Source: a phage
Assembly (NCBI GenBank): GCA_018167155.1
Contig: GCA_018167155.1_4332.1
Length of the DNA: 43,803 bases
Reading direction: 5' to 3' (one strand)
Below, piece after piece: positions 2,586 through 43,803 of this stretch. Within the stretch, counting starts at the first letter, position 1. Each line of letters begins with the position of its first letter. The notes under the pieces were generated by a model that was given only the letters and a program-made list of their open reading frames with translations, did not search any database and had not been told where the DNA came from. Both the position numbers and the translations under genes were made by a program.

Positions 2586-2615
2586 CTCTGTCTTTCCTCT
2601 CGTTTGTGTAAATGA

Positions 2616-2644
2616 ATAGTAGCCTATTATATCTTAGTGTGCAA
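2616..2644 (-). promoter_or_regulatory. Sigma70-like promoter (minus-strand TTGCAC-N17-TACTAT) with embedded AATAG-N4-CTATT palindrome
   Basis: Plus-strand gtgcaa at 2639-2644 and atagta at 2616-2621 with 17-nt spacing; palindrome AATAGTAGCCTATT at 2615-2628; 30 nt upstream of the start at 2585. Confidence 0.6.
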
Positions 2645-3822: not shown

Positions 3823-3856
3823 AACCCTCACTCCTCTGTCTCGTTCCGATAAGTGA

Positions 3857-3885
3857 ATAGTATCCTATTATGTTGGGGTGTGCAA
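3857..3885 (-). promoter_or_regulatory. Sigma70-like promoter (TTGCAC-N17-TACTAT) with AATAG-N4-CTATT palindrome
   Basis: Plus-strand gtgcaa 3880-3885 and atagta 3857-3862; palindrome AATAGTATCCTATT at 3856-3869. Confidence 0.6.
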
Positions 3886-4266
3886 GAGATTCATTGAAAA
3901 TGGTTACGTTGCCGTTGTGGATTCTTTATGGGAGGTTGTGCCTTTATTCTTATTACTTGGTAACTAAAGGGCAGGCCTTAAGCCTGCCCAATAATCGTTA
4001 CATTTTTACGGTCGCGAATCTATGGCACATTAAGAAAATCAGATACTTAAGAGATATGCTGCCGATGTGAATAGAGCTTGCCCAGGGCAACCGGAGATAC
4101 TTAGGAAGGAAAGTTACGACAATTCTTATGTTCAGTAAGCCTGTGTTTAACCCTTTGCTTGACGCACGGGTTAAACATTCTTACAAGGTGAACAAGAATC
4201 AAAGTAACTAAGATATAGAAGCACCTTAAACGAAGATTTTCATAATGTCAATAGGTGCGATTATGT

Positions 4267-4295
4267 TTGATTTCCCATTATTCGCAATGTATACT
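4267..4295 (+). promoter_or_regulatory. Sigma70-like promoter TTGATT-N17-TATACT for the rightward replication operon
   Basis: Hexamers at 4267-4272 and 4290-4295, about 30 nt upstream of the SD and ATG at 4328; lacks the AATAG palindrome. Confidence 0.5.
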
Positions 4296-4327: not shown

Positions 4328-4498
4328 ATGACTCAGAATGAGGTAGCTGAGCGTATCGGGGTTACTCGTCGCACGCTTAATAACTGGTTAAAGAGTGGGA
4401 AGTTCCCGGATTGTTGTATTCGCATTATGGGTCGCCGGCAGCCAGGTACGTTCGACCCGGAGAAAGTGGAAGCGTGGATTAAGGAGAATGTGAAATGA
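4328..4498 (+). CDS. AlpA/excisionase-like HTH DNA-binding protein
   Basis: ORF track 4295..4498; ATG at 4328 after GAGGG; motif VAERIGVTRRTLNNWLKSGKFP...VEAWI resembles AlpA-family HTH regulators. Confidence 0.5.
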   Translation: MTQNEVAERIGVTRRTLNNWLKSGKFPDCCIRIMGRRQPGTFDPEKVEAWIKENVK

Positions 4499-4728
4499 CC
4501 GAGTTCCAGTCACGTGTATTTACGGCAGTCGTTTCATTAACCCGTAAAAAAGGGTCGTGCAGCGTTATGGACTTGCGCCGTAGTTATTTTAAGTACTATA
4601 GTTCAGCCATTATTGAAGGGTCGTTACGTGTACTGGTTAAATCCGGTGTCGTGAAAAATGTTGGCGGGAAATATAGTGCCGTTGCCGAAGTTCGCGGAAT
4701 GACCGCTACTTTAGAAGACCTGGAATAA
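4495..4728 (+). CDS. Hypothetical protein
   Basis: 77 aa, ATGA-coupled to the upstream gene. Confidence 0.5.
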   Translation: MTEFQSRVFTAVVSLTRKKGSCSVMDLRRSYFKYYSSAIIEGSLRVLVKSGVVKNVGGKYSAVAEVRGMTATLEDLE

Positions 4729-4787: not shown

Positions 4788-7028
4788 ATGTCCGATGTAA
4801 TTTTATCCTACTCTTGGTCCCGTCGCAACGCGCGGGCAGAGAAAAAGGATATAAACGTCAGAACCACCCACACGGCAACACTGGACGACCTGAAAGAGTT
4901 AATCCGGCCGCTTGATGCTGTTCGTGGTGGGATTAACCCGAAGACCGCGCCCGGTTATATCACCGCCGCGTGCGACTCGACGCACAGCACCGTAAAAGAC
5001 CCGGAAACAGGGGACTTTAAGCAGGCGCGTAAAGGCTTCTTTTATCGCTGTGATGCGTCTGTAAGCAAATCGTCGCTGGCGTACCTGGACTTTGACAGCG
5101 CAACGCCGGAAGAGTACCAGGAAGCTGTGCGCCTGGTTAAGCGCAGCCGCCAGGCCATGTGCCTCTACACCACGGCATCACATACCGACGAATCGCCGCG
5201 CTTTCGCGTCGTTATGCCGCTGGCCCGTCCGGTCGAAGGTGGTAACATCATCCGTGTTCGCCACGGATTGCTGGAGCACTTCTTCAAAGGCATGGGCGCG
5301 GATCGCAGCGGGTTCACTCTTTCGCAGCCGATGTACCTGCCGCCGGTTGGCTCTACCGTTATCTGGTCGCGCCGCAACGACCTGATTGACCCGGACGAAT
5401 TACTGGAAGGCATCCCGGATTACGAGGTGAGCAGCGCATCTGACTACCAGATACCGGAAGAACTGCGCACTGCATTTACCAACGCATTCGAGGCATTAGC
5501 GTTTGAGTACGGCGGCATCATGACACCCCGCGGCCTTAAGATGCCGGCCACACCAGAACACGCCGAAAACTACAGCGACCCGACGCCGCGCCATGACGAC
5601 TTCCTGCTGTGCTTCCCGCGCGAGGGATATGAAGCGCCGAATGTAACAATGATTCACGACACCGACATTACGGCAACCGAAGGCATGTCACCGAAAGAGG
5701 TGTGGAAATACGCGTGCGATGCGACCGGGCTGCCGTTCGGTGAAGTGGCTGAGGCGATAGGATGGGGCGCACGTGAATCTGCCTCATGCAGCCTTGACGA
5801 CCTGGAAGACGACGAGGACTCAGAGGATGGCGAGCTACCGGAACCAGTAAAGGCTGATTTCATCGTCGAAGGGTACATGCCGTCGGATTGTATCTGGGAT
5901 ATCGTCGGGGAATCTGGCACGTACAAATCGTTCTATACGCTGGGGATGATGTACCTTAGCGCCGCCGGATACCGGTTTGCCGGGGCTGATACCCAGCGTT
6001 GCCACCATTTCTATATCGACGGTGAGGGTGGCGCGGCCACACGTACACGTATTGATGCACTCGCGGCTAAATATGGCGAGGAAGGTAAAGATTACGTACA
6101 TGTCATCGACATGGGCGAAGTTGGAAAACTGAAAAGCCTGATTAAGCTAATGCGCGAAACTGCTGGCGACGAGCCAATTGGGATGGTTGCCTTTGACACA
6201 CTCAACCAGACGCTGGCGCTGACGATTGATAAGTTCGACGAGAATAGTTCATCAACGGCAATCGGCATGGGTAAAGTTATAGCCATCCTGAAAGAAGTTC
6301 GCGACGCGACTAGAGCCGCAGTAGGCGTTGTTCACCACACACCGAAGGGTGGAAAGAAAGCCCGTGGCAGCGGGGCATTGTACGCGGGCGTCGACGTGGA
6401 ACTGACAATCGAACGCGCTACTAACCAACAAATAAACGTATACCACTCAAAATTTAAGCACGGTCCTCAACAGAAAACGGTTGGTATGGTTCTGGAGTCT
6501 GTACAGTTCCGTGAAGCTCCGCCTCCAAAAGAGTACCGCGCGGTTGAGTTCCTCGGTAGCACGGAGGAATACGGCACAATCGTAAACCTCGACCTGCCTG
6601 AGCCGCACAAAGCGCTTGTTCTGATGCCGTGGGGTTTCGAGCCGTTCAAGACCGACGAGGAGAAAGAGCGGGAAGAAGGGCTGACAAAGGAAGGTAAAGA
6701 AAACGTAAAGAATGCCGTAAAACGTGGGAAGGATGAAGGGTGTAAGGAATCAATACTCGCTGCGCTGGAAGACCTGCAGCAGTCCGACGACACTGGACGC
6801 GGTTTCACCCAACGGCAGATAGTAGCGAACTCTGGCGACCACGCCATCACCAACCACCATCTTGAGAAGATGCTGAAAGACGGTGAGTTGATGCTTGGGT
6901 GTGATATTGACGGTGAAGTTATTCCCGGTACATACCGGATACCGGAAAAGATGGGTGACAGATTAAGACCGAAGACAATATACGAACCTAATGAAATGCT
7001 GATAGTTACAGAAGAGGATTTAGAGTAG
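4788..7028 (+). CDS. Primase-helicase-like replication protein (N-terminal AEP primase-polymerase motifs, C-terminal RecA-like P-loop ATPase)
   Basis: ORF track 4746..7028 (GTG); ATG at 4788 after AAGGA. N-terminal LDFDSA (DxD) and ASHTDESPRFRVVMPL (sxH) are AEP primase motifs; C-terminal Walker A GESGTYKS and HHTPKGG suggest a RepA/DnaB-like ATPase. Confidence 0.6.
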   Translation: MSDVILSYSWSRRNARAEKKDINVRTTHTATLDDLKELIRPLDAVRGGINPKTAPGYITAACDSTHSTVKDPETGDFKQARKGFFYRCDASVSKSSLAYLDFDSATPEEYQEAVRLVKRSRQAMCLYTTASHTDESPRFRVVMPLARPVEGGNIIRVRHGLLEHFFKGMGADRSGFTLSQPMYLPPVGSTVIWSRRNDLIDPDELLEGIPDYEVSSASDYQIPEELRTAFTNAFEALAFEYGGIMTPRGLKMPATPEHAENYSDPTPRHDDFLLCFPREGYEAPNVTMIHDTDITATEGMSPKEVWKYACDATGLPFGEVAEAIGWGARESASCSLDDLEDDEDSEDGELPEPVKADFIVEGYMPSDCIWDIVGESGTYKSFYTLGMMYLSAAGYRFAGADTQRCHHFYIDGEGGAATRTRIDALAAKYGEEGKDYVHVIDMGEVGKLKSLIKLMRETAGDEPIGMVAFDTLNQTLALTIDKFDENSSSTAIGMGKVIAILKEVRDATRAAVGVVHHTPKGGKKARGSGALYAGVDVELTIERATNQQINVYHSKFKHGPQQKTVGMVLESVQFREAPPPKEYRAVEFLGSTEEYGTIVNLDLPEPHKALVLMPWGFEPFKTDEEKEREEGLTKEGKENVKNAVKRGKDEGCKESILAALEDLQQSDDTGRGFTQRQIVANSGDHAITNHHLEKMLKDGELMLGCDIDGEVIPGTYRIPEKMGDRLRPKTIYEPNEMLIVTEEDLE

Positions 7029-7029
7029 G

Positions 7030-7056
7030 TAAAAAGAAAGGGGCGTTAAGCCCCTT
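7030..7056. terminator. Hairpin terminator between convergent genes
   Basis: AGGGGC-GTTAA-GCCCCT stem-loop; on the minus strand it is followed by TTTCTTTTT (terminates the XRE gene). Confidence 0.5.
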
Positions 7057-7261
7057 CACCGAACGCCAGCCACTTGGCGTCTACTTCCAGCACTTCCGCC
7101 AGTTTAAACAGCGTTGCCGGGCGGACGTCCTGAGTTACACCGAGCGCAAGTTGGTTAATTGCGCCCTGGGAAACACCAGCCAGGACAGCCAAACGGCGCT
7201 GGGAGATGCCGAGTTCTTTACGGCGTTGTTCTACACGGATGCCTAGTTCAGATGGTTGCAT
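7046..7261 (-). CDS. XRE-family (Cro/CI-type) helix-turn-helix transcriptional regulator
   Basis: 71 aa; LGISQRRLAVLAGVSQGAINQLALG is a classic HTH_3 motif. The only leftward gene inside the rightward operon; SD AAGGAG upstream of the ATG. Confidence 0.75.
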   Translation of the reverse strand: MQPSELGIRVEQRRKELGISQRRLAVLAGVSQGAINQLALGVTQDVRPATLFKLAEVLEVDAKWLAFGEGA

Positions 7262-7281
7262 GTCAATTACTCCTTAGTTAG

Positions 7282-7354
7282 TTGATATGTGAATAGTACC
7301 ATATTAATTATTTTATAAAAGCACATTGACATGTGAATAGTTCGCTATTATAGT
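7282..7354. promoter_or_regulatory. Divergent control region with two copies of the AATAG-N4-CTATT operator-like palindrome
   Basis: Copy 1 AATAGTACCATATT at 7292-7305; copy 2 AATAGTTCGCTATT at 7336-7349 inside TTGACA(7326-7331)-N17-TATAGT(7349-7354), which drives the + gene at 7386. A minus-strand TACTAT over copy 1 may serve the XRE gene. Confidence 0.55.
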
Positions 7355-7385
7355 TAGTCCATACCAAACGAGAGGAGAGAAACAG

Positions 7386-7643
7386 ATGCAGTTAATTGAC
7401 TTGCTGCTTAGAGAGCTGCCTAAGTATGGTGGTTGGCCTGCAGGTGCTACGGAATGTATCAGGTTTGTAGATGAAGCGACGATTGACTTCTACGACTCTA
7501 ACGGGGATTGGCCGTACGATTGTGCAGAGATATACGGTGGGATAGCATCCTGTCTGGTGCGTGATCCATCTAGACCGCTTGAAAGTGAAGTAGTTTACTA
7601 CGAAGACTATAAAAATGCGTTAAATAAACAGGAGAACAGATAA
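7386..7643 (+). CDS. Hypothetical protein
   Basis: 85 aa, ATG after GAGAGGAGAGAAACAG. Confidence 0.55.
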   Translation: MQLIDLLLRELPKYGGWPAGATECIRFVDEATIDFYDSNGDWPYDCAEIYGGIASCLVRDPSRPLESEVVYYEDYKNALNKQENR

Positions 7644-8140
7644 TGTTAGAGAAATTCTTAGTATTACTGGAACGTTTCGTAGTTGCACATGAACTGATTG
7701 CCGCGAACAGTGCGAAACAAGTTGTCGTTGCCGAAGTAGGTGGGTTAACCGCAGAGACTAAAGCAGACGTAGTTCGTGCCGTTGTAAAAGCTGAAGCAAC
7801 AAAAGAAATCCCGGTCGAAGGTGAAGATGTAGTTGACACCAAACCGGCAGAAGAAGAGAAGCCAAAACGCAAGCCGCGTAAAGCTAAAGTAGAGGAACCG
7901 ACGCCAGGGCCGCAAGAAGAGAAAGAAGAGGTCGATTATAAGTCTCTGCGCGACCAGATTCAGGCTATCGACGATGCGATTAACGAAGGCCCGAGCGATG
8001 CTGCGTGTGATGATTCTGATGAACTGCTGGAAGAGTTTACCGGTAAGAAGATGAAGATTGCCGCGATTAAAGATGAAGACCTGGCCGAGTACCTTGAACG
8101 TCTGACAGCAATCAAGAACAAGTATTTCGAAGAAGAATAA
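7643..8140 (+). CDS. Hypothetical acidic, Lys/Glu-rich protein
   Basis: 165 aa, start overlaps the upstream stop (TAATG). Confidence 0.55.
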   Translation: MLEKFLVLLERFVVAHELIAANSAKQVVVAEVGGLTAETKADVVRAVVKAEATKEIPVEGEDVVDTKPAEEEKPKRKPRKAKVEEPTPGPQEEKEEVDYKSLRDQIQAIDDAINEGPSDAACDDSDELLEEFTGKKMKIAAIKDEDLAEYLERLTAIKNKYFEEE

Positions 8141-8145
8141 CTATC

Positions 8146-8166
8146 CGGCGGCCTTCGGGCCGCTTT
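8146..8166 (+). terminator. Putative hairpin terminator or attenuator
   Basis: GCGGCC-TTCG-GGCCGC stem followed by TTT, just after the 7643..8140 stop. Confidence 0.35.
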
Positions 8167-8183
8167 AACTGAGGGTCGGAATT

Positions 8184-8498
8184 ATGAACTACGAAAATTT
8201 AACAGACATAGAAATTAATGCGCGTGTCAGCCGCGCACTATACGGAGATGTTTCGCGACGACATCAGATGCAATTAGCTTCTGGAGTAGTTGATTATTGT
8301 AATCGAATAGAGGACGCATGGCCTATTATTGAAGAAAACAACATCAGCCTGATTTTAGATAACCCGACAATGCCGTGTGCAACGTCAAACGCTCGGGATT
8401 TATTTAACGACGACGATACAGAAGTGGGTGTTGCCTATGGCAAGCCACTCCGCGCGGCCATGATAGTCTTTCTGGAAATGCAGGAGAAGGCACAATGA
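8184..8498 (+). CDS. DUF2591 (NinX-like) phage protein
   Basis: N-terminal MNYENLTDIEINARV and C-terminal PLRAAMIVFLEMQ resemble NinX/DUF2591 proteins as I recall them. Confidence 0.45.
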   Translation: MNYENLTDIEINARVSRALYGDVSRRHQMQLASGVVDYCNRIEDAWPIIEENNISLILDNPTMPCATSNARDLFNDDDTEVGVAYGKPLRAAMIVFLEMQEKAQ

Positions 8499-10170: not shown

Positions 10171-10199
10171 TTGACACCTGAATAGCGAACTATTATAGT
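10171..10199 (+). promoter_or_regulatory. Sigma70-like promoter TTGACA-N17-TATAGT with AATAG-N4-CTATT palindrome in the spacer
   Basis: TTGACA 10171-10176, TATAGT 10194-10199, palindrome AATAGCGAACTATT at 10181-10194. Confidence 0.6.
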
Positions 10200-10254
10200 T
10201 CTAATCACTGGCCGGGCCGTTCCCGGAGTAAACTGAAAACTGAGGAATCGAAAA

Positions 10255-14492: not shown

Positions 14493-14796
14493 AGAGGGCC
14501 GCGTACAGAAATACGCAAAAGAGCGATTCGAGGCCATTGGTGGCCTCGTTCGTAAACTTTCCTACGAAAACAGACGCGCAGCGATGGATTTGTTAGTGGT
14601 CCTGCCCGGCGGCATCATCTGGTTCGTCGAGATTAAGAAAGACGAAAACACGAAGCCAGACCCGCACCAGCTACGGGAACATGAGAGATTCCGGAAACGT
14701 GGTGCGAATGTTTTTGTCGTTGGTTCGTTTAAACAGGTTGACACCCTAATAGCGAACTATTATAGTCAGCCCTACACCAACAATATAAGGAATTGA
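14482..14796 (+). CDS. VRR-NUC domain nuclease
   Basis: 104 aa; DLLVVLPGGIIWFVEIKK...QLREHERFRKRGANVFVV matches the VRR-NUC PD-(D/E)XK pattern. Confidence 0.6.
   Translation: MATKEGRVQKYAKERFEAIGGLVRKLSYENRRAAMDLLVVLPGGIIWFVEIKKDENTKPDPHQLREHERFRKRGANVFVVGSFKQVDTLIANYYSQPYTNNIRN
14738..14766 (+). promoter_or_regulatory. Sigma70-like promoter TTGACA-N17-TATAGT with AATAG-N4-CTATT palindrome, inside the 3' end of the VRR-NUC gene
   Basis: TTGACA 14738-14743, TATAGT 14761-14766, palindrome AATAGCGAACTATT at about 14748-14761. Confidence 0.55.
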
Positions 14797-27338: not shown

Positions 27339-27367
27339 TTGCACACCCCAATATAATAGGGTACTAT
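27339..27367 (+). promoter_or_regulatory. Sigma70-like promoter TTGCAC-N17-TACTAT with AATAG-N4-CTATT palindrome
   Basis: TTGCAC 27339-27344, TACTAT 27362-27367, palindrome AATAGGGTACTATT at about 27355-27368. Confidence 0.6.
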
Positions 27368-27396
27368 TCACTTACACCAACAATGAGGGGTTTAAA

Positions 27397-36140: not shown

Positions 36141-36184
36141 AGCTTAGCACATTTTCAGTTAAAAGTCAACTATTCGAATAGTTT
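36141..36184 (-). promoter_or_regulatory. Candidate leftward promoter (TTGACT-N17-TAAGCT) abutting a 16-bp perfect palindrome AACTATTCGAATAGTT
   Basis: Minus-strand -35 from plus agtcaa 36164-36169 and -10 from plus agctta 36141-36146; palindrome at 36168-36183. Confidence 0.35.
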
Positions 36185-36235: not shown

Positions 36236-36264
36236 TTGCAGACACCAGTATAATAGGGTACTAT
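36236..36264 (+). promoter_or_regulatory. Sigma70-like promoter TTGCAG-N17-TACTAT with AATAG-N4-CTATT palindrome
   Basis: TTGCAG 36236-36241, TACTAT 36259-36264, palindrome AATAGGGTACTATT. Confidence 0.6.
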
Positions 36265-36298
36265 TCAGTTATCGAAGCGAGAGATAAGGGGCTTAAAG

Positions 36299-38112: not shown

Positions 38113-38141
38113 TTGCAGACACCAATATAATAGGGTACTAT
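38113..38141 (+). promoter_or_regulatory. Sigma70-like promoter TTGCAG-N17-TACTAT with AATAG-N4-CTATT palindrome
   Basis: TTGCAG 38113-38118, TACTAT 38136-38141; the promoter-to-SD sequence is nearly identical to the 36236 promoter. Confidence 0.6.
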
Positions 38142-38167
38142 TCAGTTAACTTAAACAGGAGATGAAA

Positions 38168-43752: not shown

Positions 43753-43781
43753 AATATAGTAGGGTCGCAGGTAATAGTCAA
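43753..43781 (-). promoter_or_regulatory. Sigma70-like leftward early promoter TTGACT-N17-TATATT with a degenerate AATAG/CTAGT palindrome over the -35
   Basis: Plus agtcaa 43776-43781 and aatata 43753-43758; about 30 nt upstream of the first early ORF. Confidence 0.5.
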
Positions 43782-43803
43782 CTAGTCATTGCAGAAAATA
43801 GAT

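Follow-up and report, generated by a model that had tools for sequence, protein, structure and literature searches.

A Cro-type repressor candidate and its putative genome-wide operator set in a Kagunavirus-type virulent phage

The stretch of DNA analyzed here, referred to as the window, comprises 43,803 nucleotides of phage origin (contig GCA_018167155.1_4332.1 of the NCBI GenBank assembly GCA_018167155.1). Region 6500-8200 matched 444 phage records at 80-95% identity, nearly all of them Guernseyvirinae of Escherichia or Salmonella. Since, in addition, the protein encoded at 7046-7261 is 94-100% identical in Kagunavirus genomes (about 51% in Jerseyvirus), the window is, judged from these matches, a Kagunavirus-type virulent siphovirus genome, i.e. 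that of an E. coli phage. Rfam and tRNA scans of the window gave no matches. Neither an integrase nor a cI-type repressor, a second regulator or partition genes are annotated in the relatives Schulenburg and ST20, in agreement with the first-pass annotation, according to which the phage otherwise lacks lysogeny genes.

As outlined in Table 1, a gene of 71 codons lies on the minus strand at this locus, and its product had been described as an XRE-type HTH regulator. The assignment was confirmed by a match to Pfam HTH_3 (PF01381) over residues 11-65 with 47.2 bits against a gathering cut-off of 23 (E = 2.3e-12); no domain beyond HTH_3 was found by the Pfam scan of the 71-aa protein. The best sequence match in the PDB was 434 Cro (E = 5.4e-7, query residues 6-68 versus residues 4-64 of 71). 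Structure prediction, which the first-pass annotation had proposed as a check, yielded a single-sequence AF2 model (pLDDT 84) with five helices (5-17, 21-28, 32-39, 48-57 and 62-66) in a lambda-repressor-like fold. Foldseek returned 434 Cro (2cro) as the best fold match with TM values of 0.73/0.79 and about 40% identity, the other top matches being 434 repressor, HipB, SinR and P22 C2. By its full-length homology and its single domain of ~70 aa the protein can thus be counted among the 434-type Cro proteins. Homologues are encoded in 563 phage records, where the gene is named "transcriptional repressor", "Cro", "DicA" or "HTH domain protein" (Schulenburg, ST20 and many other Guernseyvirinae records). 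The gene has a strong ribosome-binding site, AAGGAG, which is kept in all Kagunavirus and Jerseyvirus upstream regions examined.

The hairpin and U-run that had been proposed as the gene's own terminator were found as a minus-strand stem (7057..7037) followed by CTTTTT. With an 8-bp stem containing five GC pairs, a 5-nt loop and a CUUUUU tail the element has the make-up of a Rho-independent terminator; its RNA folds with -14.9 kcal/mol (z = -2.7, UCUUUUU tail), and the record of phage Schulenburg annotates a terminator at the same hairpin. On the plus strand no U-run follows the hairpin, so that it ends the leftward transcript and probably not the convergent helicase-primase transcript. Helicase-primase transcripts may read through window positions 7018-7075 (+) and run antisense to the XRE gene, which might add a further level of control by transcriptional interference.

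From its own promoter region through its own terminator the XRE gene is monocistronic, with the helicase-primase gene converging on it and replication genes diverging from it. The first divergent gene (7386-7643) has no Pfam family, and its PHROGs matches are to families of unknown function only. The XRE gene had been regarded as the only leftward gene inside a rightward replication operon. It is indeed the sole leftward gene there, in agreement with the annotation of Schulenburg and ST20, but the block consists of at least four transcription units and not of a single operon. Its description as a lone antisense gene likewise applies to Kagunavirus and Jerseyvirus and not to Cornellvirus, TS6 and phiEap-2, where it is the first gene on the helicase-primase strand, upstream of and co-directional with helicase-primase (L006 11098-13749, L007 1205-4095 and L083 7245-9898). 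The helicase-primase module of Kagunavirus and Jerseyvirus has the inverted orientation and therefore converges on the XRE gene.

The control region upstream of the XRE gene contains a 25-nt direct repeat (7282-7306 and 7326-7350) whose copies are 84% identical and lie 44 bp apart from start to start. Each copy holds one palindrome, O1 and O2 in Table 1; two copies had been reported before, with a spacing of 45 bp, which has to be corrected to 44 bp. One of them was said to lie inside the divergent rightward promoter, and O2 does fill the 17-nt spacer of P_R, whose hexamers TTGACA (7326-7331) and TATAGT (7349-7354) match the sigma-70 consensus in 11 of 12 positions and which is followed 32 nt downstream by a ribosome-binding site and an ATG.

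The second copy had been placed over a putative -10 element of the XRE gene itself, and this assignment could be substantiated. The single mismatch of O1 (G to T) makes a TG two bases upstream of TACTAT, i.e. an extended -10, and in Jerseyvirus the same TACTAT is preceded by TTGCAC or TTGCGT exactly 17 nt upstream. For these reasons TGGTACTAT at 7293-7301 (-), which O1 covers, is on sequence grounds the probable promoter of the XRE gene. The architecture seen in Jerseyvirus (TTGCAC-type -35, 17 nt, TACTAT) matches that of five further promoters of the window, designated class B below. The alternative leftward promoter TTCACA-16-TAAAAT is less likely, since its -35 is not conserved and reads TTCACT, TTCAGG, TTCATT or otherwise in the relatives. 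A leftward TATAAT beyond O2 (7347-7352) has no usable -35 upstream of it and is at best remotely conceivable as the XRE promoter. Both O1 and O2, two of eleven sites in total, are located within 125 bp of the XRE start codon, and the pairing recurs in Jerseyvirus; dyads of about 14 bp overlap the gene's own probable promoter as well as the divergent early promoter.

Table 1. Features of the XRE locus and dyad sites of the window (positions in the window; class A, B and C promoters are defined in the text).
Feature	Position	Strand	Description
XRE/Cro-like HTH gene	7046..7261	-	71 aa, ATG start, stop codon included; from ORF and Pfam HTH_3
Ribosome-binding site of XRE gene	7270..7275	-	AAGGAG, 8 nt upstream of ATG; read from sequence
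Intrinsic terminator of XRE gene	7027..7057	-	stop codon TAA in loop; terminator scan, RNA fold
Operator O1	7292..7305		AATAGTACCATATT, on gene strand AATATGGTACTATT; one mismatch to dyad
Operator O2	7336..7349		AATAGTTCGCTATT; perfect dyad
Probable XRE promoter	7293..7301	-	extended -10 TGGTACTAT inside O1; inference from relatives and class B architecture
Alternative leftward promoter	7310..7337	-	TTCACA-16-TAAAAT; 10/12 consensus; promoter scan
Rightward promoter P_R	7326..7354	+	TTGACA-17-TATAGT, O2 in spacer; drives 7386 onwards
Operator, leftward class B promoter	2615..2628		unit ends with holin and endolysin in relatives; Schulenburg mapping
Operator, leftward class B promoter	3856..3869		small early-type genes 3831 down to 2792
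Operator, class A promoter	10181..10194		in spacer of TTGACA-17-TATAGT; ssDNA-binding protein and DNA polymerase unit
Operator, class A promoter	14748..14761		in spacer of TTGACA-17-TATAGT; helicase unit
Operator, rightward class B promoter	27355..27368		imm-like and phosphoesterase cassette within tail gene block
Operator, rightward class B promoter	36252..36265		small cassette within head gene block
Operator, rightward class B promoter	38129..38142		small cassette within head gene block
Weak operator, class C	36161..36174		one mismatch; overlaps -35 TTGACT of leftward promoter
Weak operator, class C	43773..43786		one mismatch; overlaps -35 of leftward TTGACT-17-TATATT

The O1 module (window 7282-7311) repeats the "-35 + operator" module of P_R with TTGATA instead of TTGACA and so contains a weak promoter-like site of rightward orientation, TTGATA-18-AATTAT. 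The repetition points to an origin of O1 from a duplicated P_R module.

The palindrome had been regarded as a genome-wide operator. Consistent with this, AATAG-N4-CTATT turned out to be the most over-represented palindrome of the window with eight perfect sites against about 0.04 expected. Allowing one mismatch at most, 12 matches were counted (0.96 expected), a number that none of 100 shuffled sequences reached. All nine strong sites are located 25-75 nt upstream of a ribosome-binding site with start codon, and the three promoters that match sigma-70 best in the whole window, namely those of class A below, each have the dyad in the spacer. According to the position of the dyad, three classes of promoters could be distinguished. 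In class A (7336, 10181 and 14748) TTGACA is followed after four nucleotides by the dyad, which overlaps TATAGT. Class B (2615 and 3856, leftward; 27355, 36252 and 38129, rightward) has the form TTGCAC/G-N10-dyad, and the right half of the dyad contains a TACTAT -10 located 17 nt from TTGCAC. In class C (36161 and 43773) a one-mismatch dyad lies over a TTGACT -35; the PWM scores of these two sites are borderline relative to shuffles, and both sites are conserved in Schulenburg, ST20 and Jerseyvirus. A PWM scan for further weak sites gave nothing convincing beyond these eleven. As mapped from Schulenburg, the units headed by dyad promoters include those of the exonuclease, of ssb and DNA polymerase, of the helicase and of small early genes, the unit ending with holin and endolysin, and two or three opposite-strand cassettes in the structural block; class C heads the spanin/capsid and the NinH-to-terminase units.

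The dyad thus occurs in three registers relative to the promoter hexamers (spacer, -10/+1 and -35), which argues for a separate protein site and not for a part of the promoter. Could the palindrome nevertheless have arisen as a by-product when promoter cassettes were copied, and from half-sites that resemble a -10 (TATAAT / TACTAT), with no dedicated binder at all? In favour of such an origin, the sequence shared by the five class B promoters extends over ~36 bp and thus exceeds the needs of an operator, one half-site overlaps a TATAAT-like sequence, and O1 and O2 are parts of a 25-nt direct repeat. It leaves the three registers unaccounted for, as well as the invariant arms and free centres at orthologous sites; moreover, the class A dyad fills a spacer that is not read by sigma-70, and promoter function needs no dyad symmetry. 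A by-product therefore seems very improbable, and the dyads are in all probability genuine regulatory sites.

Besides the operators, the promoter regions showed some further repeated elements. The class B cassette of ~36 bp, TTGCA(C/G)AC(A/C)CCAAyATAATAGGnTACTATTCAnTTA, is present in five copies (2600-2650, 3840-3890, 27339-27372, 36236-36270 and 38113-38147) whose likeness is far above the need of operator plus hexamers; three of the copies drive short cassettes that lie on the opposite strand within the tail and head gene blocks, and TTGCAC may serve as a poor -35 or be recognized by a further factor. AATAGTTGACT is found at 36161-36181 and 43773-43786, where the TTGACT -35 is overlapped by the one-mismatch dyad, and 36166-36181 form a perfect 16-bp everted palindrome, AACTATTCGAATAGTT. 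Furthermore, a class A promoter is directly followed, in the leader of an ssb/Gp2.5-like gene, by the element CACTGGCCGGGC(A/C)G at 10208-10232, which is kept in Kagunavirus, Jerseyvirus, Cornellvirus, TS6 and phiEap-2 with differing flanks; the hairpin predicted for 10208-10232 is no stabler than those of shuffled sequences (z = +0.8).

Conservation was analyzed in 45 loci, 34 of Kagunavirus (from IMG/VR) and 11 of Jerseyvirus. The first-pass annotation had suggested to look for the same gene-operator pair in related genomes, and in all 45 loci gene and operators were kept together. The arms of O2 are perfect in all 34 Kagunavirus loci, its central four nucleotides occur in six forms, and its distance to the -35 varies by 1 nt. 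As far as the sequences tell, a dimer that reads two half-sites would be expected to leave such invariant arms around a free centre. O1 has the same sequence in 33 of the 34 loci, and the one exception retains the TG. In Kagunavirus O1 and O2 are 44 or 45 bp apart, compared to 55 bp in Jerseyvirus; this difference of approximately one helical turn may have a meaning of its own or may be no more than a consequence of the extra -35. The recognition helices of the two genera differ at four of seven positions (SQGAINQ in Kagunavirus, SQSLITH in Jerseyvirus) while the core dyad is the same, so that helix and operator show no strict covariation; a difference was seen only in the flanking base, which is T/A in 17 of 17 distinct Jerseyvirus sites and mostly G/A in Kagunavirus.

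In the more distant Cornellvirus, TS6 and phiEap-2 the XRE orthologue is 38-43% identical. The perfect dyad occurs at chance level in these genomes, only a relaxed form, AWTA-N6-TAWT, is enriched (11 versus 2.3 expected) at equivalent promoter positions, and no clear site was found over the promoter of the XRE gene itself. A more specific motif for Cornellvirus, AWTAY-N4-CTAAT, which had been derived post hoc, was rejected, since it fails in TS6 and phiEap-2, where some sites read CTATT.

As to the protein that binds the dyad, the XRE product had been named the prime candidate, and several lines of evidence support this putative role. It is a full-length homologue of 434 Cro, which as a dimer binds 14-bp dyads. 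In the complex of 434 repressor with its 14-bp operator, Gln28 contacts the initial adenine. Q32 of the XRE protein, which aligns with this residue at the start of the recognition helix, is invariant in five aligned orthologues from three genera, and the dyad of the window likewise comprises 14 bp with A as its first base. The co-conservation of gene and operators in the 34 Kagunavirus and 11 Jerseyvirus loci points in the same direction. As a control, two lambdoid genomes (L003 and L004) were inspected, whose 434-type Cro homologues have 434-like recognition helices. Their genes are flanked by ACAA-N6-TTGT and not by AATAG-N4-CTATT, and hence the operator type follows the protein type. Finally, the only other recognizable HTH protein of the phage is missing in the complete ST20 genome, as detailed below. 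Taken together, we consider it likely that the XRE protein binds the dyad sites and represses.

The other HTH gene, 4328-4498 (+), is small and located upstream of the helicase-primase gene. It is preceded by about 420 bp (window 3872-4294) without a convincing gene, between the leftward early promoter and the HTH_17 gene. This stretch contains a minus-strand terminator-like hairpin (3969-3989), a stem-loop with perfect 10-bp arms (4144-4177) and the repeated element AGATACTTA(A/G)GA at 4041 and 4095; it has no Rfam match and could be an origin or a regulatory RNA region. In ST20 (L084 6954-7539), L027 and L034 the slot of the HTH_17 gene is occupied by a 47-aa Cys-rich ORF and a 149-aa ORF instead.

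The HTH_17 protein (excisionase/MerR-like; Pfam match with E = 2.1e-7) was considered as an alternative dyad binder. Between Kagunavirus and Jerseyvirus, both with the dyad, it is conserved to ~85%, and it is absent in Cornellvirus, where the perfect dyad is lacking; furthermore, it probably corresponds to K1B4_008, a reported early gene (PMC12645636). However, no homologue is present in the complete ST20 genome (the best tblastn match, E = 0.027, runs through a stop codon) or in the loci L027 and L034, all of which have the XRE gene and dyads at every position. ST20 in particular retains the XRE protein with 98.6% identity, and its dyads, six of them perfect and three near-perfect, occupy the same promoter positions and include O1 and O2. 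HTH_17 family members typically bind direct repeats, and the gene's own upstream region holds only a mis-spaced AATAG-GTG-CGATT. The HTH_17 protein was therefore rejected on the evidence of ST20, L027 and L034, and the probability left to it is negligible. A 77-aa ORF at 4495-4728 was likewise dismissed as a binder, since no homologue was found in Schulenburg, which has seven perfect dyads.

A more general alternative is that the dyad is the real operator of another protein, either a conserved host factor of Enterobacteriaceae or an unrecognized phage protein, and that the XRE protein has a narrower or different target. The XRE protein is a putative binder of the dyad, the core dyad stays the same for orthologues whose recognition helices differ at four of seven positions, and many small phage ORFs belong to no Pfam family; all this leaves some room for a different binder. 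Against it stand the two sites within the XRE gene's own control region in both genera and the 14-bp geometry, which matches the closest solved homologue of the XRE protein. Moreover, among the scanned or annotated proteins the XRE protein is the only recognized sequence-specific HTH protein of the dimer type that occurs in every genome examined, and to our knowledge no E. coli factor has an AATAG-N4-CTATT consensus. We hold a different binder to be unlikely, and the XRE protein is retained as the probable one.

In comparison with known systems, 434 Cro is the closest counterpart. Both proteins comprise 71 aa with a single HTH_3 domain and are associated with 14-bp dyad operators; both genes diverge from a strong early promoter, and the operators lie on the gene's own and on the early promoter. 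The functional likeness, which extends to lambda and P22 Cro, would be the role of Cro in lytic growth. The differences are nevertheless considerable. Neither the locus nor the annotation of the relatives shows an immunity region with a divergent cI gene and a tripartite OR (the 434-type regions of L003 and L004 differ in this respect), and instead two sites 44-45 bp apart are found, one per promoter. The half-site is AATAG here and ACAA in 434, the recognition helix SQGAINQ here and KQQSIQL in 434, and in the XRE protein two residues are inserted into the loop that follows helix 3. The operators, at least nine in number, are distributed over the genome of a virulent phage, compared to OL and OR only in 434. 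Although the XRE gene thus falls outside the immunity-region definition of a lambdoid Cro (no cI, no tripartite OR), it is predicted to work like Cro.

Repressors with dispersed operators are known from P1 (C1), mycobacteriophage L5 (gp71 with its "stoperators") and phiC31 (c repressor with its CIR sites). These proteins, which maintain lysogeny in temperate phages, come from other protein families, with several asymmetric sites among their targets. The likeness consists in a single phage repressor with many copies of a short site at or near promoters, whereas here the protein is Cro-sized, the dyads lie inside promoter cores and a lysogeny module is missing. The controller (C) proteins of restriction-modification systems (C.AhdI, C.BclI and C.Esp1396I) share the small XRE fold and two dyad sites upstream of their own gene, through which they autoregulate as is predicted for the XRE protein. 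Their C-boxes, however, are adjacent and act as activator and then repressor site on one promoter, whereas the XRE sites belong to two divergent promoters; in addition, no restriction-modification genes flank the XRE gene and its sites are 44 bp apart. Nor does the gene resemble an XRE antitoxin of the HigA/HipB type, as no co-transcribed toxin gene lies beside it.

Based on these results we propose the following course of regulation. The XRE protein would be a Cro-type single-domain repressor, most likely acting as a dimer on the 14-bp dyad (G/T)AATAG-N4-CTATT(A/C), and would be made from its own extended -10 promoter, the leftward transcript being ended by the hairpin and U-run after the stop codon before it reaches the convergent helicase-primase gene. 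Perfect dyads such as O2 would be filled first, whereby spacer and -10 of P_R would be occluded and the unit from 7386 onwards shut, and the other class A and B promoters would be shut likewise by occlusion of spacer or -10. At a higher protein level the weaker O1 would be filled and the gene's own -10, TGGTACTAT, covered, resulting in negative autoregulation; the class C sites, which cover -35 hexamers, would become occupied last. We infer in this scheme the binding of the dyads by a dimer, the transcription start sites, repression as the direction of control and the order of occupancy. Because the dyad is present in seven more promoters and two weaker ones, the XRE protein may act as a one-component global governor of phage transcription.

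The arrangement had been called a classic autoregulated genetic switch, which is overstated: with one regulator and no cI partner negative feedback is expected and not bistability. Our best reading is a Cro-only, negatively autoregulated global repressor, in which a Cro-like feedback is extended genome-wide. A true decision circuit would imply that the whole genome of a supposedly strictly virulent phage can be silenced reversibly, in a carrier or pseudolysogeny-like state. The operators do sit on essentially all recognizable promoters, including that of the unit with lysis genes in relatives, and the regulator is predicted to be autoregulated. Yet neither a second regulator nor an integrase or partition genes are annotated in the relatives, the XRE protein has no C-terminal domain for oligomerization or cleavage, and no report of such a state was found for Guernseyvirinae in the literature searched, which renders a decision circuit decidedly improbable.

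Apart from a decision circuit, it is conceivable, if still rather unlikely, that one Cro-sized protein gates essentially every sigma-70-type promoter and so could allow a graded or reversible silencing of dormancy- or carrier-like character. In that event the replication units, the unit with lysis genes in relatives and the opposite-strand cassettes in the structural block would be gated, as well as the head and packaging units via the weaker -35 sites.

The gene has already been named repressor, Cro or DicA in GenBank; no description of operator, promoter architecture, regulon or protein function was found in the searchable literature. One RNA-seq study of a Kagunavirus sorted the genes into coarse classes, with 42 "middle" and four "early" genes (PMC12645636). 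By gene order, the XRE orthologue would be K1B4_004, next to the AAA helicase and among the 42 "middle" genes, a grouping that is uninformative in this respect, and the HTH_17 gene is probably K1B4_008, one of the four "early" genes (PMC12645636). In the BASEL study some Kagunavirus isolates (Bas74-76) plated only on E. coli K-12 cured of cryptic prophages (PMC11990801), which raises the question of whether prophage XRE repressors cross-react with the dyad operators.

Kagunavirus and Jerseyvirus (Guernseyvirinae) are among the phages most often isolated for biocontrol of E. coli and Salmonella and serve as engineering chassis. Genomes of this subfamily, which is widely used as a source of "strictly lytic" therapeutic phages, are routinely flagged for a "repressor". 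If the XRE protein is a Cro-type governor of the lytic cycle without cI or integrase partner, the label "repressor" does not imply a temperate lifestyle. The analysis furthermore provides a testable transcription map of about eleven promoters in three architectural classes, and the compact repressor and its operator set could serve as engineering parts to control the expression of phage genes or payloads. The locus would also show, in a clean natural case, how a virulent lineage has kept a regulatory circuit consisting of Cro only.
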